Assembly (NCBI GenBank): GCA_040396875.1
Contig: JBBAWZ010000001.1
Location: forward strand, 110,198-174,197
Direction: 5' to 3'
Origin: Bacilli bacterium
GTDB lineage: Bacteria > Bacillota_I > Bacilli_A > RFN20 > CAG-826
DNA length: 64,000 nucleotides
In this document: one piece after another, positions 1 to 63,433 of the stretch
Position numbering within the stretch: position 1 is the stretch's first letter
Layout: each line of letters begins with the position of its first letter
Program-made: the position numbers and the translations under genes
The notes under the pieces: generated by a model
The model's input: the letters and a program-made list of their open reading frames with translations, nothing else
The model's database searches: none
What the model was told of the DNA's origin: nothing

Positions 1-6
1 TTACCA

Positions 7-750
7 ATGAATCACCATTGGATGAAAAGTTTTTTTATTGGAAGTTATATTTTATTTACATCAATGATGTTGCTTTGGTTTTGGCAACCCATCGATTGGA
101 TCTTGTTGGCGATGATGTTAGCCTTATTGACCGTTACTTGGTTGAGCTATTTATACCGGAAAGTAAAACACTTGGACGAAGTGATGATGAAGCATTACTT
201 AGCGTTGATTGTCGATACCGAGCAATTGAAGCGTTTTCATCAATGGAAGCAAGGTTGGTTCGGATTACCCTTAAATAAGCTCTATCGATTATTGGTTTTA
301 ACCGGCACCGTCATCTATATCTGTTTTGCATCCCCTTTATTTCTTATTATCCTAGGGATTTATCATGGCGTTCTTTCACTATGGATTCCAAAATTGAATC
401 AACATGATGATGCTGAAGTGGGTACCATTGGAAAAATGGAGCAATCACTAAAATACCCCTTCATTCCCTTAAAAGATTTTCAACAACTGTCCGAACGAGT
501 CTATCAATTGGTTCATTTTCGATTATGGGGTTGGATACTAGCAATGATGGTGGCAATAGGATTCGTGTGGATCTATCAGCAACTTTTTTACTTTGAGGCG
601 TTTTTAACATGGTTCACCATGGTTTCATTACTGATCCTAAGTTATCACCACCATCACGCGTTATATCGTTATCCAAAAGAAAAAAAAGAATGGAGGCAAC
701 TAGGGTTTATCTTTTTGAACAGCAAGGATTATGTTAAAATAAAAGTGTGA
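7..750 (+). CDS. hypothetical polytopic membrane protein, no family recognised
   Basis: 247-aa ORF with several hydrophobic helices (FFIGSYILFTSMMLLWFW, ILLAMMLALLTVTWLSYL, LLVLTGTVIYICFASPLFLIILGIY, WGWILAMMVAIGFVWIY, FLTWFTMVSLLILSY). Its TGA overlaps the GTG start of ybeY (GTGA). Confidence 0.5.
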   Translation: MNHHWMKSFFIGSYILFTSMMLLWFWQPIDWILLAMMLALLTVTWLSYLYRKVKHLDEVMMKHYLALIVDTEQLKRFHQWKQGWFGLPLNKLYRLLVLTGTVIYICFASPLFLIILGIYHGVLSLWIPKLNQHDDAEVGTIGKMEQSLKYPFIPLKDFQQLSERVYQLVHFRLWGWILAMMVAIGFVWIYQQLFYFEAFLTWFTMVSLLILSYHHHHALYRYPKEKKEWRQLGFIFLNSKDYVKIKV

Positions 751-1193
751 ATATCGACTTAATTGCACCTAAAATTCTTCATTCTTATCACTTACTTACT
801 CGCTATTCATTTTTGTTAAATAAAACATTAAAGGTAACCGGACATTCTAAGAATTCTTTCGTAGATGTATTGATAACAACAAATAAAGTCATTCAACGAT
901 ACAACTTAAAATATCTAAATCATGATTATCCTACCGATGTTTTAAGTTTTCCTCTAGAACTTGATGCACCTTCTTCAAGTGATAAAAAAATTATCTTAGG
1001 TCAAATCGTGATTAATTATCAAAAAGCATTTATTCAGGCAAAAACCTATGGTCATACCAAGGAGAGAGAACTATCTTTCCTATTTGTCCATGGTTTATTG
1101 CATTTATTGGGTTATCATCATGACACCAAAAATGAAGAAGACCTCATGATCAAACTACAAGATCAAATCTTGGGAAAAAGGAAACCAATATGA
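747..1193 (+). CDS. ybeY: rRNA maturation endoribonuclease YbeY
   Basis: Zinc motif FVHGLLHLLGYHHD near the C-terminus, about 148 aa, position directly before cdd-era as in Firmicutes. GTG start. Confidence 0.85.
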   Translation: MNIDLIAPKILHSYHLLTRYSFLLNKTLKVTGHSKNSFVDVLITTNKVIQRYNLKYLNHDYPTDVLSFPLELDAPSSSDKKIILGQIVINYQKAFIQAKTYGHTKERELSFLFVHGLLHLLGYHHDTKNEEDLMIKLQDQILGKRKPI

Positions 1194-33039: not shown

Positions 33040-35598
33040 TTAGTCGTTAATGCCGATGTAAGTTGCTTCTTGAGGTTCTGTACTTCGGGTGGTTTCTTCA
33101 GACTTCAATTTTGCCTTACGTTTAGGTAGCCATTCGAAGCTTAAGGTCTGATTCAAACCACTAAATAATTTAAAGATTGGTTTAAAAACTGCAGGGATAA
33201 TCGCAGTGGTAAACAATGCAACCATGGCACTACCTAGTAAGATTGCAGCAAATAAACCTTGAAGAGCACCAGGCCCTAAAGCTAAATAGGTCAGACCTGG
33301 ATAAACTAAGGCAAGAACGGTTAAAAAAATGGGGGCTGCAAGTTGGCTGGATGCCTTCTTTAAGGATAAAGTGAAATCATCAATAGAAGCTGGTCGATCT
33401 TTTTGAATACCTTGAAGATCTTTTGCTCTCAAGAAAATAGATAGAGTCGAAATCATGGCTAAATAGCTAATGATGATCATACTTAAGGTAATGGTAGATA
33501 AAGAAGGAATTCGTGTTGCAACAAATAAACCAAGGGTTAGTAAACCCAAAGCTGCACTAATCAAGGTGGTGGTGAATGCTTTTGCAATACCATGACGAAT
33601 CAATAAATAAACTGTCACTAAACTGATGGCAATTAAAGCACCCAACGTCATGTCCATGACAGTGGGTTGATTGGTTAAGGTTTCACCAGGATAAAAACCA
33701 ACCATGGTCACTTGATCATCTTCATAAACGATAGTAATCACTTCTTCTAAAAGGTCATTGAAGTTATCACTTTCGAGAATCGGATCAGTCCCGTTATTAA
33801 AACTAAAGGTAACATCTTCAAGTGTTTCGATGGCAAGTTCTGCAACAAAAATTCGATATGCGACAGCGATATCATTTTCTCGACGAGTTAAATCATGAAC
33901 TTGAATGGTGGATTCACTCAATGCTAAGGATTCACCATCAATCAAGAGATTATCAATTAATACTTGTAAATCAGCAGTGGTTTCAAATTGAGAGAATTCC
34001 TTAGCTTCTAAATAAAGACGAGCATTACTTGTTTGAGTTGGTGTGGCAATCGCTGGTAAATTGAAAGTCGATAGTGTCACCATCGCGATCAAGGTAAGTA
34101 ATCCACCAACCATGGCGATCGGAGAAAGAAGCGGACCTTTAGAAGCAAAATCACGTGTAGCAAATCGACCAACGTAAACTGGTTTTTCATTTTTCAATAA
34201 ATCTGGAATGAGCGAGGCTTTGAGATTCAACCATGCTAACTTTTTCGTCAAAATCGTGGCCTGTAAGAATTGTCCAAATAACAATTGATTACCTAAATAA
34301 ACGATGATGGCGTTGCTAACGGAACCAATCATTAAGATAACCGCCAAGCTTTGGGCAAGATTACCACCGAAGATATAAAGGAATAAACCAAAGATTAGAC
34401 TGATGACCGTTACATCAATCAACAAAGGTAACAATTGACCATTCGCTTCAGCATGAGCTTTTTTAAAACTTCTTCCTTGATAAATTTCTCGGCGAGTGTA
34501 AGTTAAGTACATGACAGATGTAAAGATACCGAGGATACCGATAATTAAAAATCCGATTAAAGCGCCACTTGAAAATTCTAAATTTAAAGTGATAAAAATA
34601 AATAAAGTTAAAAACACTGAGAGTGTCGTCGTACTAAGGATACCCAATGCACCAAGTCGATAGACAATCGCTAAGACAACAACCATCATGGTGATAGCAA
34701 TCACCATCGCCCATAAGGTTTGACTATTCGCAAGTGAGAGTATAGTTTCGAGTGATAAAAGCGCTTCGACCGCTGCGGGAACATTTTGAGCATATAAGAA
34801 CTCAACAGAATATGCTAAATCACCAGCATTAAATAAGTTTCGATAATAAATGGCTTCTTCATTCGCCTGGGCAACAACCGTGGAAGCAAAAATATTATTT
34901 TCATTCGGTTGACCAAATTGAGAAGGAGAAACTAAATAAGCTAGTTCTGTTTTGGCTTCAGTGTCCCACCATAAGTTATTCACAGGAAAACGAAGGAGAA
35001 TTTTTTCAGCGATTTCAGGATTGTTTAAAGATTCAGAGTAAGAATCTTCTTCAACTTTTCCAGCCCAAAGTAGCAATTCACCATCGGTTGATTCTTCACC
35101 ACCGGCTTCAGTGATGAGCACTTCTTTTAAATACGTTAGATCTTCAACTGAAAAGACGACAAATGGATTTTGACCTTTATATTCAATTCGTGCAGTTTGA
35201 CCATTGAACATTTGTTCACTGGTTGCACAAACTTCTGTTGTAGTGCACAAAGTAAATTCTGCATCAAATCCTAGGTAGTTTTGTAATCGCGTATATTTAG
35301 TGTCTGACGTTTCTGAAAGGGTTACACGAATTTGATCATTACCTTCTACCATGACTTCGTATTTGGTGACCAAGGCGTTTTCTAATCGATCAATCATCGC
35401 ATTTGCGATGGTGGTGACGGCTTCGTTATCTTCAAAAGCAGCATCTTCATTGATTTTGTCGGCGATTCTAAAGACCATTTCTTTACCAGAAGTAAATTCT
35501 AAGTTCGTATTCAAACCACCCACGACCGAAAGGAAATTAACACCAATCAAAATCAGCGTTGTTAAAGATAAAATGAGATAACTCCAAATTCTTCGCAT
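33040..35598 (-). CDS. secDF: protein translocase subunit SecDF (fused)
   Basis: About 850-aa polytopic protein with two periplasmic-type domains and 12 TM segments. ATG 35598 (MRRIWSYLIL) has GGAGGA 6 nt upstream. The track start is an upstream TTG. Confidence 0.9.
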   Translation of the reverse strand: MRRIWSYLILSLTTLILIGVNFLSVVGGLNTNLEFTSGKEMVFRIADKINEDAAFEDNEAVTTIANAMIDRLENALVTKYEVMVEGNDQIRVTLSETSDTKYTRLQNYLGFDAEFTLCTTTEVCATSEQMFNGQTARIEYKGQNPFVVFSVEDLTYLKEVLITEAGGEESTDGELLLWAGKVEEDSYSESLNNPEIAEKILLRFPVNNLWWDTEAKTELAYLVSPSQFGQPNENNIFASTVVAQANEEAIYYRNLFNAGDLAYSVEFLYAQNVPAAVEALLSLETILSLANSQTLWAMVIAITMMVVVLAIVYRLGALGILSTTTLSVFLTLFIFITLNLEFSSGALIGFLIIGILGIFTSVMYLTYTRREIYQGRSFKKAHAEANGQLLPLLIDVTVISLIFGLFLYIFGGNLAQSLAVILMIGSVSNAIIVYLGNQLLFGQFLQATILTKKLAWLNLKASLIPDLLKNEKPVYVGRFATRDFASKGPLLSPIAMVGGLLTLIAMVTLSTFNLPAIATPTQTSNARLYLEAKEFSQFETTADLQVLIDNLLIDGESLALSESTIQVHDLTRRENDIAVAYRIFVAELAIETLEDVTFSFNNGTDPILESDNFNDLLEEVITIVYEDDQVTMVGFYPGETLTNQPTVMDMTLGALIAISLVTVYLLIRHGIAKAFTTTLISAALGLLTLGLFVATRIPSLSTITLSMIIISYLAMISTLSIFLRAKDLQGIQKDRPASIDDFTLSLKKASSQLAAPIFLTVLALVYPGLTYLALGPGALQGLFAAILLGSAMVALFTTAIIPAVFKPIFKLFSGLNQTLSFEWLPKRKAKLKSEETTRSTEPQEATYIGIND

Positions 35599-35701
35599 GT
35601 TTGATCCTCCGAAAGGTCTTTTAAACGACAAATGTCGCTATAACACTTTACTATGTTTTGGGTGTAAATTCAATGAAAAATAGTAGAAAAATCTTGTGTT
35701 T

Positions 35702-40717: not shown

Positions 40718-41401
40718 TCATATGATTTTTTGCTGTTTCATCGAGAAATAACCTTGAAAAGAAATGATCAAATGGTCGATGAGGTGAAAACCCAATTTTT
40801 CGCCTTCTCTTTTGATGGCAATCGTCGTATGAATGTCTTCTTGAGAGGGGGTGACATCGCCTGATGGATGGTTGTGAAGTAAAAGAAACTTTTTTGTGTC
40901 GGTTTTTAACAGATCAACAAACAAGTCACGATAATCTAGTTGGAGTGATGCTTGCGAGCCAAGGCGAAAGAGAGTTTCACTTTTATATTGATATTGGTGA
41001 TTTAATTTAACAATGATTAATTGCTCGTGCAAAAGACTACCTAATCGCAATCGATAACATTGATAGACTTTGCTTGGATCATTGAGTTTTACTTGAGGGA
41101 GTTCTTGTTTTTCTAAACGTTGAAATAGTTCAAACATTCCAAGTAATTGAATGGCTTTGGTTCTTTGAATTCCTGGAATCGATAACCATTCATGAAGTGG
41201 AATTTTCATCAATGCTACTAAGCTTCCATACTTGTTTATCAGCATTTCAGCAATAGAAAGGGCGGAGTGCCCTTTCACACCTGATCCAATCATCAAGGCT
41301 ATGAGTTCTTGACTTGATAATTGTTTGACACCATACGCGAATGCTTTTTCTCTTGGACGCTCTAAGGGCGCAAGATCGGCGATGCGTTTATTTCCACTCA
41401 A
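40718..41401 (-). CDS. radC: RadC-family JAMM protein
   Basis: PLERPREKAFAYGVKQLSSQELIALMIGSG N-terminus and HNHPSG JAMM motif. The track ORF extends to ATG 41482, but that extension is not RadC-like and overlaps a better small ORF. TTG 41401 (or GTG 41413) is preferred. Confidence 0.85.
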   Translation of the reverse strand: MSGNKRIADLAPLERPREKAFAYGVKQLSSQELIALMIGSGVKGHSALSIAEMLINKYGSLVALMKIPLHEWLSIPGIQRTKAIQLLGMFELFQRLEKQELPQVKLNDPSKVYQCYRLRLGSLLHEQLIIVKLNHQYQYKSETLFRLGSQASLQLDYRDLFVDLLKTDTKKFLLLHNHPSGDVTPSQEDIHTTIAIKREGEKLGFHLIDHLIISFQGYFSMKQQKII

Positions 41402-41564
41402 ACTGGAAACCACCAGGAATCGTAGCCTTTCCACTTGAGGACATAAAAATTCGATAAACAATGACAGCGGAAATCGCAACAATCATAATGGCCATTACTG
41501 CAGCTAAAGAAACTGGTTCACCACCCTTGAGGGTTGTTAGTTCTTCTAAACTCAATTCTTCCAC
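41388..41564 (-). CDS. candidate 58-aa peptide with double-glycine-type leader and one hydrophobic helix
   Basis: Absent from the track. GTG 41564 with AGGAGG 7 nt upstream. Translation (M)EELSLEELTTLKGGEPVSLAAVMAIMIVAISAVIVYRIFMSSSGKATIPGGFQFEWK. Its TAA lies inside the radC start region. Confidence 0.45.
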   Translation of the reverse strand: MEELSLEELTTLKGGEPVSLAAVMAIMIVAISAVIVYRIFMSSSGKATIPGGFQFEWK

Positions 41565-41605
41565 ACATATGCCTCCTATTTTTCAATAGAGGCCATAAAT
41601 TAACT

Positions 41606-44203
41606 TTAGAACTTTAGGGTTTCAAGTTTGGCTTTGGTTTCATCATATTGACGTTGATATAAAGCAAGTTTATCCTTTTCTTCTTTTATTTTTTGTGCCG
41701 GGGCTTTTTCTAGAAACCTTGGATTAGAAAGCATTTGTTTTGCCCGTTGGATTTCTGCAACTAATTCATTCAGTGTTTGGGTTAATTGCGCCTTCATTTT
41801 AATTGGATCAATCAACTCTTCAATCACCATGGATCCTTTAGCATACAAATAACTCGACATGGTAGGTGTTTTAACTTGATTGACTGGGAGCTTTTGTACC
41901 GTTGAAAAACTAAATCTTTCAATGTAAGGAAGGATGGTGTTGTAAATTTGTTCTGGTTGAGCAGCAATGCTTAATTTGAGTTTTGCATTGGGTGGTAATT
42001 GATGCTCTACTTTATAAGTACGAATGTCACTAATCATACTTTGAACAAGCGTAAAACTAGGATCTTCTTGACCTAAAACCATCGATGTTGGATACAATTC
42101 CATATAAATCGAAGCTTGATGTTGCGGTAATTGTTGATAAATACTTTCTGTGATGAAAGGCGCGAACGGATGAAGAATAATGAGGATAGACTTTAATATA
42201 TGATGGAGCACGTTCAATGTAGTTTGTTTACTTACTGCATCTTCCCGACTTAACGTTACTTTTGAAAACTCCAAATACCAAGAACAAAAATCATCATAGA
42301 CAAAGTTATAAATAACCGTTGAAGCAAAACCTATTTCATACTTTAATAAATTAGATTTCACTTGATCTAACACTTGATTCAAACGTTGCAGAATGCCTAT
42401 TTGAATCCCATCCAAATGTTCCTTAAGGATACGAGTGGGTTTAAAATTCTCAGGTAAATAACTCAAAATAAAGCGAGCAGAATTCCAAATCTTATTTAAA
42501 TAATTAGCCTGAGATTCTACTTTTTCTTCTATATATCTCGTATCTTGACCAGGACTTGAGTTGGTCGCTAAATAAATACGAAGCGCATCGGTTCCATATT
42601 GGTCAATCACTTTAATCGGATCGACACCGTTGCCTAAAGATTTTGACATTTTTCGTCCTTGTGAATCACGAATAATGCCATGAATCAAAACATCATGAAA
42701 GGGTTTTTTACCTAAAAAATGTAGTGATTGAAATGCCATTCTAGCAACCCAAAAGAAAATAATGTCGTACCCGGTTACCATGGTGGATGTGGGAAAATAA
42801 TCTTTAAGTAATTGATTAGAATTGGGCCAGCCTAATGTAGAAAATGGCCATAATGCAGAAGAAAACCATGTGTCAAGAACGTCGACATCTTGTTCATAAT
42901 CTTGAATGTTTTTAGGCGCTTCAACACCAACAAAAATATCTCCGGTCTTTTTATGGTACCAAGCTGGGATTTGATGACCCCACCAAAGTTGTCGAGAAAT
43001 ACACCAGTCTTCAACTTTTTCCATCCATTGTTGTAACGTTTGTTCAAAACGATTAGGAAAGAAACGAATTTTGTCGTCGCTAGCTTGAAGGGCAAGAACT
43101 TTTTCTGCCAACGGTTTCATTTTTACAAACCATTGTTTTGAAAGATAGGGTTCAACAATGGCATCGCTGCGTTCACTATGGCCAACAGCATGTTTAATGG
43201 GTTCAATTTTTTCAAGGTTGCCTTGTTGTTCCATATAACGCACAAGTTGTTTTCGTGCTTCAAATCGATCTAATCCTTTAAATTGATGACCGCGTTCGTT
43301 AATCGTACCGTCTTTTTCAATACACATCGGCCGTTCAAGTTTATGACGTTCAGATATCGCAAAGTCATTCGCGTCATGAGCTGGCGTGCATTTCATGACG
43401 CCAGTTCCGAATGACGTATCGACATAGTCATCCGCAATAATGGGAATACTTTGTCCATTACTTGGATTGATTGCGCGCTTACCAATTAACTTTACATATC
43501 TTTGATCTTGAGGATTAACCACCAAGGCTACGTCTGCAAACATGGTTTCAGGACGGGTGGTGGCAACCACTAATGTTTGAGAACCATCTACTAAACGATA
43601 ACGGCAATAATAAAGGTTGCCTTCAATTTCTTTATGGATGACTTCAACATTGCTTAATGCCGTTCTTTGTTCGGGATCCCAATTGATAATTCGTTCTCCA
43701 CGATATATTAAACCTTCACGATAAAGCTTGATGAACACTTCCTTTACGGCATTAGAAAGACCCTCATCCAAAGTAAAACGTTCTAAATCATAATTTAATG
43801 CTAATCCTAATTTAGCCCATTGGCGACGAATATTTAATGCATACTCATCTTTCCATTTCCACATTTCTTTTAAGAAATTTTCTCGGCCTAAATCATAACG
43901 AGATATGCCTTTTTCTCTCAGTTTATTTTCAACCACCGCTTGCGTGGCAATCCCCGCATGATCCATCCCGGGTAAATAAATGACATCTTTTCCCAAGCTA
44001 TGATGAAAGCGAATCAAAATATCTTGAAGGGTATTATCCCAAGCATGACCTAAGTGTAATTTACCTGTAACGTTAGGTGGAGGAATGACAATGGTATATT
44101 TTTCTTTTCGATTGGGTTGAATACCAAATAATCGAAGTTTCAGCCAATGCTCATACTTTCCTTCTTCAACTTCTTGATGGTTATATCGTTTTGCAAGTTC
44201 CAT
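41606..44203 (-). CDS. valS: valine--tRNA ligase
   Basis: 865 aa, HLGHAW (HIGH), KMSKS, CP1 editing domain, C-terminal coiled coil. Confidence 0.95.
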   Translation of the reverse strand: MELAKRYNHQEVEEGKYEHWLKLRLFGIQPNRKEKYTIVIPPPNVTGKLHLGHAWDNTLQDILIRFHHSLGKDVIYLPGMDHAGIATQAVVENKLREKGISRYDLGRENFLKEMWKWKDEYALNIRRQWAKLGLALNYDLERFTLDEGLSNAVKEVFIKLYREGLIYRGERIINWDPEQRTALSNVEVIHKEIEGNLYYCRYRLVDGSQTLVVATTRPETMFADVALVVNPQDQRYVKLIGKRAINPSNGQSIPIIADDYVDTSFGTGVMKCTPAHDANDFAISERHKLERPMCIEKDGTINERGHQFKGLDRFEARKQLVRYMEQQGNLEKIEPIKHAVGHSERSDAIVEPYLSKQWFVKMKPLAEKVLALQASDDKIRFFPNRFEQTLQQWMEKVEDWCISRQLWWGHQIPAWYHKKTGDIFVGVEAPKNIQDYEQDVDVLDTWFSSALWPFSTLGWPNSNQLLKDYFPTSTMVTGYDIIFFWVARMAFQSLHFLGKKPFHDVLIHGIIRDSQGRKMSKSLGNGVDPIKVIDQYGTDALRIYLATNSSPGQDTRYIEEKVESQANYLNKIWNSARFILSYLPENFKPTRILKEHLDGIQIGILQRLNQVLDQVKSNLLKYEIGFASTVIYNFVYDDFCSWYLEFSKVTLSREDAVSKQTTLNVLHHILKSILIILHPFAPFITESIYQQLPQHQASIYMELYPTSMVLGQEDPSFTLVQSMISDIRTYKVEHQLPPNAKLKLSIAAQPEQIYNTILPYIERFSFSTVQKLPVNQVKTPTMSSYLYAKGSMVIEELIDPIKMKAQLTQTLNELVAEIQRAKQMLSNPRFLEKAPAQKIKEEKDKLALYQRQYDETKAKLETLKF

Positions 44204-44412
44204 AATTTCCTCCTAGAAATAAAAAAACGTCCTCAGATAAGGACGCAGTTGATGCGTGGTACCACCTTAATTCATGCTATTTAGCATGCACTCAATCCTC
44301 TTATCGCGAGGTGACGTTGATGAGGCGATAAACGACTTCCATCATGTTCTTTAACCTGCTTTCATCCACTCAGGCTTTCTAAGTAAAGAAGAGACGATGT
44401 ACTCTTTTTATC
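44204..44412 (-). promoter_or_regulatory. T-box riboswitch leader, valine specifier (GUC)
   Basis: Minus strand has the T-box core AATTAAGGTGGTACCACGC (44254-44272), a specifier-loop GAA-GUC-G (GUC at 44336-44334), the terminator GCGTCC-TTATCTGA-GGACGT plus T7 (44215-44246), and TATAAT at 44419-44424. Confidence 0.85.
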
Positions 44413-44431
44413 ATTCAAATTATACAACAAA

Positions 44432-59194: not shown

Positions 59195-60331
59195 TTAAGA
59201 AAATTTCTTACCAGATAAAAATTCTGGCAGTAGATCTTCTTCGTCTTCTTTACTGTTCACTTTAGGTAAAGGTTCTTGAGGTTTTAAAATACCTTGGTCT
59301 GGATCTGGTTTGGAAACAGGATTCGTGGTTTTGGTTAATGGACTTGGAACAGATGTATAGTCGTATTCTTCTGGGAATTGAGCCGCAATGACCGAAACTA
59401 AAATTTGATCGGTTAGTTGGTCATTGATGTTAACACCAAATTTAATATCGAGGTTGGTGCTGGCAATTTCTCGTATGCGATCAACGGTTTCTTGAGCTTC
59501 ATAAAGAGACACAAGGGGTCCACAAGTGACGGCAACGATTGCTTTGGAGGCACCGGTTAAACTGGATTCTAGTAGTGGTGAACTGACAGCACTTTGTGCA
59601 GCTTCAAATGCTTTATTCGGTCCTTGACCTAAGCCAAAACCGATCAACGCTAAACCGGAATTTCTAAGGACGTTTCTCACATCCGCAAAATCAAGGTTAA
59701 TCACCGCAGGCATTAAAATTAAATCCGTTACAGTTTTGACTGAGCGTGCTAGCACATCATCTGCTTGTTTGAACGCTTGACCAATCGGTTGATTACCAGC
59801 CGACATTAATAATTTATCGTTAGAAACGATGATGATTGCATCCACAGCATCTCTTAATTCATTTAATCCTTTTACGGAATTGGCGATTCTACCTTTACCT
59901 TCAAAGGTAAATGGACGCGTGACAATCGCAATCGTTAAGGCTTTGGCTTCACGGGCAATACGCGCAATGACAGGAGCTGCACCGGTTCCAGTACCTCCAC
60001 CCATCCCAGCAGCAATAAACACCATGTTGGCGCCTTTGACAATTTCAGCAATTTCTTCTTTTGATTCTTCTGCAGCAAGTTTACCGACTTCCGGAGAACC
60101 ACCAGCACCTAAACCATGCGTGGTTTTTTCTCCCAAGATTAAACGATTTTTGGCTTGCGATGTTTGCAAGACTTGTTTATCTGTATTGGCAACAAAAAAT
60201 TCAACATGATTCATGTTTTCTGCAATCATGCGATTCACCGCATTGTTGCCCGCTCCTCCAACACCAATGACAATAATCTTGGCTGCTGGTTCACTACTAT
60301 CCACGACAAATTTTTCTCTTCCCATCATCAC
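59195..60331 (-). CDS. ftsZ: cell division protein FtsZ
   Basis: GVGGAGNNAV, GGGTGTGAAP tubulin signature, C-terminal DLLPEFL peptide. Confidence 0.95.
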   Translation of the reverse strand: MMMGREKFVVDSSEPAAKIIVIGVGGAGNNAVNRMIAENMNHVEFFVANTDKQVLQTSQAKNRLILGEKTTHGLGAGGSPEVGKLAAEESKEEIAEIVKGANMVFIAAGMGGGTGTGAAPVIARIAREAKALTIAIVTRPFTFEGKGRIANSVKGLNELRDAVDAIIIVSNDKLLMSAGNQPIGQAFKQADDVLARSVKTVTDLILMPAVINLDFADVRNVLRNSGLALIGFGLGQGPNKAFEAAQSAVSSPLLESSLTGASKAIVAVTCGPLVSLYEAQETVDRIREIASTNLDIKFGVNINDQLTDQILVSVIAAQFPEEYDYTSVPSPLTKTTNPVSKPDPDQGILKPQEPLPKVNSKEDEEDLLPEFLSGKKFS

Positions 60332-60346
60332 ATCCTCTTTTCTTTT

Positions 60347-61570
60347 TTATTCTTCGTCATAATTGACGAAACGGCGTTTTGCCGATGGTGCTTGTCTTTC
60401 TAAACGCGTAAAGATTCTGACATCATCTTCAACTAAGGTATAACGATAACTAAAGCGAAGACCACCGAGTAACGATAAGGTTTGTGTATGTCTAGCCCCA
60501 ACCGTTCGAATATAAGGTTTTTCAACACCTTGACCTTGACCAAGCGGTTTTAATAAAGTGGTGATACCAGGTAAAGCTGCACCCCCACCAACCAAAACAA
60601 ACTTCATATCCGTCAGATCCATGGTTTCTTTATCGACCCGATATTCTTGTAAGGTCATCATCATTTCATCAATAAGGTGATCATAAAATTCTTTAATCAC
60701 TTGATTGAAATTCGATTGACGAATAACGATGCCATTTTGTTGATAAATCATGCCATCAAAAATTTGTTGCCGCGTTTCATAACCAAATTTTTCTTTCAGC
60801 ATTCTTGCTTCTTCAAGGGTAATGCCAAAGCGATTGGCAATGATCGCTGTCAATTGTTCTGAACCGGTTTCTAAAGTTTCAGAACGAATTAATTTATGTT
60901 GGGAAACCAAATTCAAATTGGTTTGGTTTGCACCATGATCAATCAAAACATAGGTTGCTACGAAGTCTTTATATTGGGTTTCGATAATATCTGCGATCCC
61001 TTGGCCATCGAGAATATAACGTTTAACTTTGATGCCGACAGCTTCCATGAGTTGGAGAACGCCTTGGAAAAAGGTCGATAAAATGTATTGGACATAAGCT
61101 TGTAAAACAATATTGGAGGTTTGTTCACCGATGGGAGGATTAATCGAATATTTATCGCCATCAATTTGATAGCTCATCGGGACAATACAAACTTGAGCAA
61201 CGTTGGTGCCAACGAATTCCTTTTGAAACATCGAATGTAAATTGTGAATATCCATTGGATGAATGATGCCATTAGGATCAACAGTATTCGTTCTTTTTTC
61301 TCCGTGGAAAACCTCAAGATGAATGGGAGGAAGCACCACATGAATGGCTTCACATTTCTTTCCAAGATGAATTTCCATATCGCGAATTAATTTCTTAATC
61401 ACTTGTGTTGTCTTATTGGGATCAACAAGTTTATCCTGCATTAAAACGCGATGATATTCCGATTGCATCACATGTAAAATAACAGGGCGAGCGTTGAGCT
61501 CATAACCTGCGAGTAATTTAATGGTACCCGAACCAATTTCTAAGATAAAAACCGGAATGTCTAATGCCAT
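60347..61570 (-). CDS. ftsA: cell division protein FtsA
   Basis: Actin-fold ATPase (FILEIGSGTIK, IDHGANQTN, LVGGGAALPG). ATG 61570 (MALDIPVF) has AAGGAA upstream. The track extension to 61654 overlaps a small ORF in another frame. Confidence 0.85.
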   Translation of the reverse strand: MALDIPVFILEIGSGTIKLLAGYELNARPVILHVMQSEYHRVLMQDKLVDPNKTTQVIKKLIRDMEIHLGKKCEAIHVVLPPIHLEVFHGEKRTNTVDPNGIIHPMDIHNLHSMFQKEFVGTNVAQVCIVPMSYQIDGDKYSINPPIGEQTSNIVLQAYVQYILSTFFQGVLQLMEAVGIKVKRYILDGQGIADIIETQYKDFVATYVLIDHGANQTNLNLVSQHKLIRSETLETGSEQLTAIIANRFGITLEEARMLKEKFGYETRQQIFDGMIYQQNGIVIRQSNFNQVIKEFYDHLIDEMMMTLQEYRVDKETMDLTDMKFVLVGGGAALPGITTLLKPLGQGQGVEKPYIRTVGARHTQTLSLLGGLRFSYRYTLVEDDVRIFTRLERQAPSAKRRFVNYDEE

Positions 61571-61578
61571 AGTTTCCT

Positions 61579-61755
61579 TTATTGAATGATTTGAAATAAA
61601 GGCGTGAATACATAAATGGATAAAATAATAGTAGAAATAAATAACACACTCCATAGCAAGTTTCTTCGGTTTTGAAGCATTAATTTACGTTGTTGTAGTT
61701 CGTTGGTAAAGACTTTTTCTAATGTCTTTGTATTTTGTAAAGAAATGGTATCCAT
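61579..61755 (-). CDS. candidate 58-aa tail-anchored membrane protein in the division cluster
   Basis: Absent from the track. AAGGAG lies 6 nt upstream of ATG 61755. Translation MDTISLQNTKTLEKVFTNELQQRKLMLQNRRNLLWSVLFISTIILSIYVFTPLFQIIQ. Its stop lies 8 nt before the ftsA ATG. Confidence 0.45.
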   Translation of the reverse strand: MDTISLQNTKTLEKVFTNELQQRKLMLQNRRNLLWSVLFISTIILSIYVFTPLFQIIQ

Positions 61756-61767
61756 AGGTTTCTCCTT

Positions 61768-62064
61768 TTATGGGTTATTCATCATCATCAACTTATTGAA
61801 CAATTCACTACCACCAAATATCACGTCCAATTCAGTGGTGTCTTCTGAAGACGATTCTTCTGATACAGAGCTAGTAAGGCTTGACGATGAACTTTCAACC
61901 GTGGTCGAACTAACGGGATTGCTTGAAGCTGTGCTCGCTTGTGCTAACGTAAGCGGCACCACCACAATAATCGTGGCCACCATTAAAGACATCGAAAAAT
62001 AACCTAATCGCCGTAAGCGATAATAGGATGCTTTTCGATGTGTTTTATAGAGTTTACTTTTCAT
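61768..62064 (-). CDS. hypothetical bitopic membrane protein with Ser/Thr-rich acidic ectodomain (occupies the ftsL slot)
   Basis: 98 aa with a basic N-terminus (KSKLYKTHRKASYYRLRRL), a TM helix (FSMSLMVATIIVVVPLTLA), then STASSNPVSSTTVESSSSSLTSSVSEESSSEDTTE. Its ATG overlaps the rsmH stop. Confidence 0.5.
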   Translation of the reverse strand: MKSKLYKTHRKASYYRLRRLGYFSMSLMVATIIVVVPLTLAQASTASSNPVSSTTVESSSSSLTSSVSEESSSEDTTELDVIFGGSELFNKLMMMNNP

Positions 62065-62992
62065 CGATAACCCTTTCTATGATTCTTAAGACTGCACTTT
62101 CTGAACGATGATTGTCTTTGATTTCTTTTTCGGAGGGTAGTATTGGATATGGTTTTATTTTTTCAAATTGTATCGAAGCAACCGGTAGATAACGTTCTGG
62201 CCCATGCCGTTGTCCCTGACTAACGGTTAACTTTTGAAAATATTGTTTAACGATTCGATCTTCACCTGAATGGAAACTTATCACTGCGAGCCGACCATGT
62301 AATCCGAGATAGGTAGATGCTGATTCAAGCACACTTTTTAGAACTTCCACTTCTTGATTGACTGCCATTCTTAATGCTTGGAAGACTTGTTTTGCAGGAT
62401 GACCTTTTTTTGCTAATGCCTTTGCCGGTTTAACTCTTTTGATCAAGTTTACTAACTCGAAGGTTGTCTTGAGTGGTTGGATCACACGTTGGTTAACGAT
62501 GGCTTTGGCAATAGGGAAGGCGAAGGTTTCATCTGCGTATTCTCTAAAGTATTGGGTTAAGGTTCTGATATCCGATGTGGCAAGTAAACTTGCTGCGGTT
62601 GTCGTTTGTCTTTGATCCATTCGCATATCGAGTGGACCATCGAAACGATAACTAAAGCCTCTTTCTGGGACATCAAATTGTGGACTCGACACGCCAAGAT
62701 CTAATAAAATACCATCGACTTTTTCAATGCCTAACTTCTTTAAAACGTCTGGGAAATGTTGGAAGTTCAGATGATGGAGACTTGCACGAGGACGACTACT
62801 TTGCCAACTTTGTAAACTTTCGATGGCCGTGGCATCTTGGTCAAAACCAAGCAAGCGACCGGTCTTTAACTTTTCATAGATTTGACTAGCGTGTCCTCCT
62901 CTCCCTATCGTTAGATCTAGATAGATACCATTGGGGCGAATCTGAAGTCCGTTCACGACTTCCGTTAATAAAACGGATTGATGTTCGTTCAT
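62054..62992 (-). CDS. rsmH: 16S rRNA (cytosine1402-N4)-methyltransferase RsmH/MraW
   Basis: HQSVLLTEV, DLTIGRGGHA, DLGVSSPQFD motifs. Confidence 0.95.
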   Translation of the reverse strand: MNEHQSVLLTEVVNGLQIRPNGIYLDLTIGRGGHASQIYEKLKTGRLLGFDQDATAIESLQSWQSSRPRASLHHLNFQHFPDVLKKLGIEKVDGILLDLGVSSPQFDVPERGFSYRFDGPLDMRMDQRQTTTAASLLATSDIRTLTQYFREYADETFAFPIAKAIVNQRVIQPLKTTFELVNLIKRVKPAKALAKKGHPAKQVFQALRMAVNQEVEVLKSVLESASTYLGLHGRLAVISFHSGEDRIVKQYFQKLTVSQGQRHGPERYLPVASIQFEKIKPYPILPSEKEIKDNHRSESAVLRIIERVIDEK

Positions 62993-63414
62993 TTTTTACT
63001 AAGATTGGCAGCGTGTTCTTCAAATTGAGATGCAGCATCCGATTCATATTGGTCCCATGTTGAAGCATTCCACAATTCGATATGGTCATTCATACCAATA
63101 ATCTTCACATTCTTTTCTAATTTAAATTGTTTCAATGTTTCTTGAGGTAGTTGAATACGGCCATGATCATCAATTGGTAGTTCTATAACAGAAGCTAATG
63201 CAGTTCTTAAATATTGACGGACATTGGATTGATTAAAGTCATACGTGTTCACTTGTTGCACAAGTTGAGCAAACGTTTGTTGGGTAAATAAGGAAATACA
63301 ATGCTCAAATCCACGCATAGCGAATAAGACAGGACCTGATTCCGATCGCATTTTTGAAGGAATCACAAGTCTTCCTTTATCGTCTAATGTGTATTGATAA
63401 CTTCCAAAAAACAT
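62989..63414 (-). CDS. mraZ: division/cell-wall cluster transcriptional regulator MraZ
   Basis: MFFGSYQYTLDDKGRLVIPSKMR aligns with B. subtilis [23 protein letters not shown]. Second DxxGR repeat (IDDHGRIQLP). ATG 63414 is preferred over the track GTG at 63423. Confidence 0.9.
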   Translation of the reverse strand: MFFGSYQYTLDDKGRLVIPSKMRSESGPVLFAMRGFEHCISLFTQQTFAQLVQQVNTYDFNQSNVRQYLRTALASVIELPIDDHGRIQLPQETLKQFKLEKNVKIIGMNDHIELWNASTWDQYESDAASQFEEHAANLSKK

Positions 63415-63417
63415 GTA

Positions 63418-63433
63418 TCCCACTTTCTCCCAC
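63418..63433 (-). promoter_or_regulatory. tandem GTGGGA direct repeats (candidate MraZ operator)
   Basis: Minus strand cATAGTGGGAGAAAGTGGGAtac. Two copies sit at a 10-bp period between TATAAT (63443-63448) and the mraZ ATG. Confidence 0.4.

Follow-up and report, generated by a model that had tools for sequence, protein, structure and literature searches.

A small membrane peptide with a double-glycine-type leader encoded next to radC in uncultured Bacilli, and its candidate peptidase-C39 partner

What does a peptide that begins with the kind of leader known from bacteriocins and pheromones do directly in front of radC? Toxins, pheromones and natural products are the cargo that double-glycine (GG) leaders are known to mark for export. 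RadC occurs in almost all bacteria, and what it does has been unclear since the original assignment to DNA repair was withdrawn. The two meet in a 64,000-nt stretch of DNA from a Bacilli bacterium (GenBank assembly GCA_040396875.1, contig JBBAWZ010000001.1, positions 110,198–174,197), hereafter the window, in which a 58-codon open reading frame (ORF) on the minus strand overlaps the start of radC. The original prediction read this ORF as a GG-leader peptide of the class II bacteriocin or ComC/BlpC pheromone type and named a small membrane protein as the competing reading. The observation itself was confirmed in this study and its interpretation was partly supported: the leader and a peptidase-C39 partner hold, and the function as a bacteriocin or pheromone fails.

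A conserved small gene coupled to radC

The small gene occupies positions 41388–41564 of the minus strand, from a GTG start to a TAA stop, and encodes a precursor that reads MEELSLEELTTLKGG up to the putative cleavage site and EPVSLAAVMAIMIVAISAVIVYRIFMSSSGKATIPGGFQFEWK after it. Its Shine-Dalgarno (SD) sequence, AGGAGG, is at 41572–41577 and is followed by the 7-nt spacer CATATGT and then the GTG. The stop codon of the upstream gene valS (41606) lies 41 nt upstream of the small ORF. Strand, start codon, SD sequence and spacing were all as originally described, the translation was exact, and the numbering of R38, K46 and K58 was correct.

Of the 446 six-frame ORFs of at least 30 amino acid residues in the window, only this ORF carried a GG-leader pattern close to the N-terminus. 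Among 5.8 billion proteins searched, 71 clusters of homologs were identified, nearly all of which were exactly 58 amino acid residues long, with identities ranging from 69 to 100%; all of them came from metagenome-assembled genomes (MAGs) of uncultured 'Bacilli' or 'Bacillota', and MAGs of this group occur in freshwater samples. A profile search of 1.84 billion representative proteins identified 69 clusters at 50% identity, almost all of 55–75 residues. When compared with close relatives, the 43-codon core that follows the leader showed 12–16 synonymous and 0–1 non-synonymous differences, which corresponds to a dN/dS of about 0. The unique leader pattern, the 71 homologous clusters and this substitution pattern together indicate that the ORF is more than a chance occurrence. 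Thus, the small ORF is a genuine gene on which strong purifying selection acts. The leader was also under purifying selection, with a non-synonymous rate several-fold above that of the core in comparisons with closer relatives. The reading frame, whose conservation in relatives had been proposed as a check, was kept across about 70 clusters.

No Pfam or NCBIfam model matched the peptide family. Moreover, no cultured organism appeared in the cluster look-up of ten family members, no member was found in cultured mycoplasmas and no relatives were found on viral contigs. The ORF had been described as unannotated, which did not stand: it is already present in NCBI and JGI annotations of MAGs as a hypothetical protein and, in two JGI entries, under the name 'bacteriocin-like protein'. 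The peptide family is new, unnamed yet already seen in NCBI and JGI annotation.

Two cases were unusual. In the MAG SUG1798 (JAQYER01), the peptide-radC pair occurs twice in almost the same form, on separate contigs (L035:1431–1601 and L037:79–249); the upstream genes differ, and the two pairs may represent a duplication, strain variants or an assembly artefact. In P0113, from a 518-bp contig (L046), a gene call of 144 residues has a phage-tail-fibre-like N-terminus, with a faint match to PF18454 (Mtd_N), in place of the leader before the helix and tail. This contig is too short and may be chimeric, and it was set aside as uninformative.

The radC gene (40718–41401, minus strand) starts with TTG, encodes 227 amino acid residues and overlaps the small ORF by 14 nt. 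Its product has an HhH-type N-terminal domain and a JAB domain with an intact HxHx7Sx2D motif (HNHPSGDVTPSQED), and PF20582 and PF04002 are recorded on RadC homologs. The longest radC ORF, of 254 residues from TTG 41482, overlaps the small ORF out of frame, and its extension over 41402–41482 is spurious. Gene calls of RadC homologs ranged from 227 to 231 residues, and gene callers often pick GTG 41413 (231 residues). The frame from TTG 41401, however, was kept in all close relatives, and in one of them (L020) it was the sole start candidate, which supports both this start and the reality of the 14-nt overlap. The start at TTG 41401, the spurious N-terminal extension, the overlap and the translational coupling that had been proposed were all borne out by conservation.

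The linkage was surveyed at more than 40 loci overall. In 33/33 loci from GTDB species genomes, radC was directly downstream of the peptide gene. The same was true of all metagenome loci with downstream DNA, including the distant P0118, P0125 and P0110, while the contigs of L042 and L046 end before the downstream gene. At all 30 loci examined, radC started −13 to +7 nt from the stop codon of the peptide, whatever the upstream gene was. The latter varied: it was mostly valS, and otherwise genes for an EamA transporter, an MsrA/GNAT protein, GreA or a 567-residue protein, or genes on the opposite strand. In the one lineage with the 567-residue ORF (L023:8230–9933), this ORF had no Pfam match. 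The peptide-radC pair persisted while RadC identity dropped to about 30% and ValS identity to 40–53%. Thus, the genomic partner of the peptide is radC, not valS, and the peptide is always translationally coupled to radC.

Leader, membrane helix and tail of the peptide

Codons 1–15 (41520–41564, minus strand) encode a double-glycine-type leader with M-15, L-12, S-11, E-8, L-7, L-4, G-2 and G-1. After the start residue, these positions correspond to L4, S5, E8, L9, L12, G14 and G15 of the precursor, as had been predicted. The window protein has the features by which GG leaders are recognized, which are a length of about 15–25 residues, hydrophobic residues at −4, −7 and −12 and Gly-Gly (or GA/GS) at −2/−1. 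The family was compared over 134 distinct sequences. The leader was 15 residues long with the start Met at −15; position −12 was L in 119/133, −11 was S or T in 107/133, −8 was E in 107/133, −7 was L or M in 110/134 and −4 was L, I or V in 108/134. G-1 was invariant (134/134) and was followed by E at +1 in 126/134. G-2 was kept in the clade of the window, in its neighbours and in all close relatives, where the motif is GG. The conserved S/T-11 and E-8 are part of the LSxxELxxIxGG consensus, and a generic amphipathic helix could do without them. For cleavage, the C39 protease LahT150 depends on leader positions −4, −7 and −12 (PMC6363468), the same positions that are conserved in the peptide family. 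The predicted match to a GG leader therefore stands for the 15-residue length and for the positions read by C39 enzymes, and it is conserved across a deep family.

Scoring with hidden Markov models (HMMs) of GG leaders, which had also been proposed, did not lend the same support, as no model reached its cut-off. The best matches of the window peptide were TIGR03893 with 17.6 bits (cut-off 33) and PF16934 with 11.7 bits (cut-off 27.6). The models for class II bacteriocins and ComC/BlpC (PF10439, TIGR01847 and NF033214) did not reach their curated cut-offs, and 46 family members gave sub-threshold matches only. These sub-threshold matches were enriched in lichenicidin A2 and plantaricin C lantibiotics, cerein 7B, ComC, TIGR01847, TIGR04149 and Bacteriocin_IIc. 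We read this enrichment as common descent with GG leaders or a shared mode of recognition, not as membership of a named family. Two other assignments of the peptide were ruled out. A lanthipeptide precursor, suggested by TIGR03893 and PF16934, is incompatible with a core (EPVSL...FEWK) that lacks Cys. A type IV prepilin-like peptide is incompatible with the sequence, as the leader is acidic, not basic, and the Glu is at +1, not at +5.

Following the leader, codons 20–41 (41442–41507, minus strand) encode a predicted transmembrane helix, which AlphaFold2 modelled as a helix with pLDDT of 90–95. Across 73 members, the mean Kyte-Doolittle hydrophobicity was 2.7 over the best 19-residue segment. 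Codons 45–57 (41394–41432, minus strand) encode the tail KATIP-GG-FQFEW, a predicted cytoplasmic beta-hairpin with a nearly invariant PGG turn. In the AlphaFold2 model of the whole peptide (mean pLDDT 82), residues 45–49 and 53–57 formed strands and PGG was at the turn. The alignments showed conservation of P50, G51, G52, F55 and W57, and the tail motif of the family was Y-R/K-L-F-x-S-x-x-G-x-x-x-x-P-G-G-F/W-x-F-x-W. The Gly codons of PGG differed synonymously, with GGT, GGC, GGA and GGG all being used, which indicates that the constraint acts on the protein. The possibility that the invariant PGG serves as the SD sequence of radC was ruled out, because these codons vary freely.

The net charge was −2.3 on the N-terminal side of the helix and +2.5 on its C-terminal side, with the same sign in 73/73 members. 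From this bias, an orientation with the N-terminus outside and the C-terminus inside (N-out/C-in) is predicted. The competing reading of the original prediction, a small N-out/C-in membrane protein, is thus supported, and it is compatible with removal of the leader.

A peptidase-C39 protein without an ATPase domain and the wider window

No protein with an ATP-binding cassette (ABC) signature or a Walker A motif was found in the window by motif scan, and a Pfam scan of its ten largest ORFs found no C39 ABC exporter. Similarly, a motif scan of 557 kb around the peptide at 45 loci found no ABC ATPase. Neither the window nor the surroundings of the peptide at these loci contained an immunity gene or a kinase, the neighbours being housekeeping genes. 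The earlier statement that the window lacks an immunity gene and a sensor kinase is in line with these results. The statement that it also lacks an exporter was right for ABC transporters and wrong in one respect: positions 1–750 (plus strand) encode the 3' two thirds (residues 132–380) of a 380-residue C39 protein, namely its six-helix membrane domain of the ABC-exporter type. Because the N-terminal C39 domain falls just upstream of the window start, only the membrane half was seen at first.

The complete gene was located on other contigs by means of the ybeY gene of the window (747–1193); it is at L047:5508–6650 and is also present in L048. Window positions 1–747 encode residues 132–380 of this protein at 99.6% identity. 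PF03412 (Peptidase_C39) matched residues 3–122 of the full protein with an E value of 2e-13, and the oxyanion Gln (Q3), the catalytic Cys (C9), His (H82) and Asp (D97) were conserved in 21 homologs. In the AlphaFold2 model (mean pLDDT 83), a C39 fold is followed by six long helices. Foldseek comparison with the PDB gave PCAT1 as the best match (E = 1.6e-9, probability 1.0), followed by HlyB, the LahT150-leader complex and the peptidase domain of ComA, whereas a sequence search of PDB chains with the C39 protein found nothing. The nearest NCBIfam models, weakly matched and over the peptidase domain only, were those of a mycoplasma family of peptidase-containing ABC transporters (PCATs; Mbov_0121) and of the NHLP bacteriocin exporter; the C39 protein has no NCBIfam equivalog.

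The protein ends at residue 380 without a nucleotide-binding domain, and its gene is flanked by rpsU and ybeY. All 31 homologs found were 365–390 residues long and lacked an ATPase domain. The housekeeping gene order rpsU-C39-ybeY-cdd-era-recO was kept down to 37% identity, and a metagenome scan with the C39 family recovered only relatives with identities of 45–99%. Given the lack of an ATPase domain, the C39 partner is not an exporter in the usual sense. The C39 gene and the peptide gene are on the same contig. Apart from the small ORF, no GG-leader ORF was detected, either in the window or in 141 kb surrounding the C39 gene at eight loci, and about 85 kb of the genome yielded no rival substrate. 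A C39 domain, whose absence from the genome would have counted against the original prediction, is therefore present about 40 kb from the peptide gene, with its catalytic residues conserved.

The expression signals of the small gene include a stem-loop, GGCCUCUAUU-GAAA-AAUAGGAGGC (41571–41594, minus strand), which pairs the SD sequence at 41572–41577 with an upstream anti-SD arm, CCUC(C)UAUU. The fold of the window sequence alone was not significant (z = −1.6). When sequences were folded one by one together with control genes, at least 80% of the SD sequence was paired to the upstream arm in 21/29 family loci, as compared with 4/25 control genes of the window. RNAalifold found no consensus structure in a MAFFT alignment of the 5' region, a result that can be attributed to indels in the alignment. 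As no U-run follows it, the stem-loop is not a terminator. Upstream, valS (41606–44203, minus strand) is the preceding gene of the probable transcription unit and lies under a T-box leader (44236–44418, minus strand; Rfam RF00230, 99.9 bits) with a terminator hairpin at 44227–44246. Between valS and the small ORF, the minus strand showed no promoter-like site, and the small ORF and radC probably ride on the T-box-controlled, tRNA-sensing valS transcript. Given the SD hairpin and the lack of a separate promoter, translation of the peptide and radC may stay low or be tied to ribosomes from upstream.

The host setting is found at 59195–63423 (minus strand), where a putative mraZ ORF (62989–63423) and rsmH are directly followed by ftsA and ftsZ, with no mur, pbp or ftsW genes in between; only a 400-nt gap in this region holds a small Ser-rich ORF. 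An order mraZ-rsmH-ftsA-ftsZ without mur or pbp genes is typical of wall-less Mollicutes. The Mollicutes-like, wall-less setting assumed in the original prediction is thus plausible. Finally, an 863-residue ORF at 33040–35631 (minus strand), located after ruvAB, had no Pfam match at E ≤ 1e-5. Its hydrophobic segments, about 12 in number, are arranged in a 1+5 / 1+5 layout, and it has conserved relatives in L002 (853 residues) and L032 (873 residues, 22% identity). Its layout and its place after ruvAB suggest that it is probably a very divergent SecDF.

Possible functions and comparison with known systems

How the leader, the C39 protein and radC might belong together can be answered only tentatively. 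The reading that we prefer, to which we give somewhat less than an even chance, is that the C39 protein removes the leader and that the 43-residue product stays in the membrane with its N-terminus outside, while its hairpin tail acts with RadC. The amphipathic leader helix, with L-12, L-7 and L-4, would dock in the cytoplasmic C39 domain while the hydrophobic core of the precursor sits in or beside the membrane domain of the same protein. Cleavage would occur after G15. As the C39 protein has no ATPase that could power export, the product (EPVSL...FEWK) would leave sideways into the cell's own membrane. The positive-inside rule would then orient it with 3–4 N-terminal residues outside and the basic aromatic hairpin tail (KATIPGGFQFEW) in the cytoplasm. 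The tail, kept in a fixed ratio with RadC by translational coupling, may bind or regulate RadC at the membrane, and the SD-sequestering hairpin may hold down translation of the two genes or tie it to ribosomes that arrive from the upstream gene. It is also possible, if doubtful, that the locus represents domesticated bacteriocin export in a wall-less lineage. In that case, an ATPase-less PCAT would have become a leader peptidase and insertase dedicated to this one conserved peptide, and the tail would recruit or control RadC at the membrane.

Several observations weigh against cleavage by the C39 protein and action with RadC. C39 enzymes generally require G-2, and of the roughly 58 representatives at 50% identity only about 20 had G at position −2; the others, about two thirds of the wider family, had V, P, S, T or A. 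Lineages without G-2 either do not cleave the peptide or belong to a family in which the leader-like helix is used in some other way throughout. The C39 gene is about 40 kb from the peptide gene, not adjacent to it, and the co-occurrence of the two is proven only for the contig of the window and is presumed for close relatives. No peptide-RadC fusion was found among 213 RadC-side matches to a concatenated query, all of which were of RadC length. In PCAT1 structures, the cargo reportedly enters the membrane cavity with its new N-terminus on the cytoplasmic side, and the opposite final orientation of the peptide would need a postulated flip. That the leader is cut, that the product is oriented as proposed and that its tail meets RadC is in each case inferred; the chain is weakest at cleavage in lineages that lack G-2, at the flip of the N-terminus and at the RadC contact.

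These observations bear on an alternative that is rather unlikely in our estimate, in which the 58-residue protein remains uncleaved and is inserted N-out/C-in by a YidC-type route, similar to the Pf3 coat protein. Its acidic N-terminal helix would then lie outside or serve in oligomerization, its likeness to a GG leader would be a relic or a convergence, and the C39 protein would serve another substrate. The charge bias in 73/73 members, the failure of every GG-leader HMM to reach its cut-off and the 40-kb distance of the C39 gene all agree with it, and a variable G-2 beside a conserved G-1 and E+1 would fit a helix that breaks at the membrane interface. However, the family keeps the full canonical leader pattern at a fixed distance from G-1, which is beyond the needs of a generic amphipathic helix, and the C39 enzyme has conserved catalytic residues and no other substrate candidate in about 85 kb. 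The reading that the original prediction put first, a secreted class II bacteriocin or ComC/BlpC-type pheromone that is cut by the C39 protein and exported with an ATPase from a separate gene, appears improbable. The textbook leader in the clade of the window, the C39 domain joined to an exporter-type membrane domain in the same genome and the two JGI homolog records named 'bacteriocin-like protein' speak for it. Bacteriocins and pheromones diversify, however, whereas the core of this peptide is nearly invariant while RadC falls to about 30% identity and the leader varies, the opposite of what would be expected. The gene is also single-copy, tied to radC and in conserved synteny, and neither the window nor the 557 kb at 45 loci contained an ABC ATPase, immunity gene, kinase or regulator. 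Moreover, the C39 partner lacked an ATPase domain in 31/31 homologs, and the core consists of a 22-residue segment with a mean hydrophobicity of 2.7 that resembles a membrane anchor. The synteny with radC, the lack of a transporter, immunity gene or kinase nearby and the absence of viral relatives likewise make the locus a misfit for a bacteriocin or pheromone.

The strict linkage to radC may have other reasons than a contact between the tail and RadC. Enzymes of the JAB class cut after Gly-Gly in ubiquitin-like proteins, and the peptide could be a substrate of the JAB metalloprotease domain of RadC, cut after G15 or after the invariant cytoplasmic PGG. The linkage and translational coupling with radC, the intact HxHx7Sx2D motif of RadC and the two conserved Gly motifs of the peptide are consistent with this idea, which we rate as slightly more improbable than a secreted bacteriocin. 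Against it, comparative genomics assigned a role with nucleic acids, not as peptidases, to RadC-type JAB domains (PMC3239186). The invariance of PGG is explained structurally by the modelled hairpin turn, and a dedicated C39 protease is present. A mainly regulatory upstream ORF, whose hairpin-gated translation serves only to bring ribosomes to the TTG start of radC, a weak start that overlaps it, is very improbable. It would account for the overlap or near touch of stop and start codons in 30/30 loci, the SD-sequestering hairpin in 21/29 loci and the TTG start of radC in the clade of the window. It would not require that 43 residues stay nearly invariant though synonymous sites are saturated, or that a membrane helix and hairpin tail be kept across about 70 clusters.

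As a small membrane protein whose gene is invariably coupled to radC, the peptide is a concrete candidate partner for RadC. If domesticated bacteriocin export were the correct reading, the peptide would be the first physical partner of RadC and would provide a substrate type for the orphan C39 proteins of Mollicutes; a GG-leader system would have been reused for the maturation of a membrane protein instead of the export of a toxin or pheromone. The locus also suggests that a housekeeping type of substrate should be sought for mycoplasma C39 proteins, including the one kept by the minimal cell JCVI-syn3A. Should the leader stay on the peptide in all cases, what remains is a new, well conserved, radC-linked family of small membrane proteins.

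Compared with known systems, the leader is of a known kind in a new setting, and it is partnered with a variant of a transporter family that lacks the motor, which is also new. The peptide shares its 15-residue canonical leader with GG-leader peptides, such as class II bacteriocins, ComC/BlpC, colicin V-type microcins and class II lanthipeptides. Different from these, its core is conserved and its leader variable, it is encoded by a radC-linked, single-copy housekeeping gene, and no immunity gene, kinase or ABC transporter is nearby. G-2 is moreover lost in much of the family, the core contains no Cys and no family cut-off is reached. Similar to PCAT/AMS transporters, including PCAT1, ComA, LagD, LahT and the mycoplasma Mbov_0121 family, the C39 partner combines a C39 domain with a six-helix membrane domain of the type IV ABC-exporter kind. 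Different from them, it lacks a nucleotide-binding domain, is encoded in a housekeeping operon and cannot drive export unaided. The Mbov_0121 model (673 positions), for instance, describes a full-length ABC transporter, whereas the C39 protein of the window lacks the ATPase.

Membrane proteins of the type of the YidC-inserted Pf3 coat protein likewise have about 45–60 residues, an acidic N-terminal tail, one helix and a basic C-terminal tail. The peptide differs from them in the protease-recognition pattern of its N-terminal tail, its conserved beta-hairpin tail and its linkage to radC. For C39-domain proteins of Mollicutes, such as the product of JCVI-syn3A gene 0401, no GG peptide is known (PMC6609329, citing Dirix 2004). 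Similar to these orphan proteins, the C39 protein of this study is a membrane protein encoded outside a bacteriocin locus in a reduced and apparently wall-less genome; different from them, it has a candidate GG substrate.

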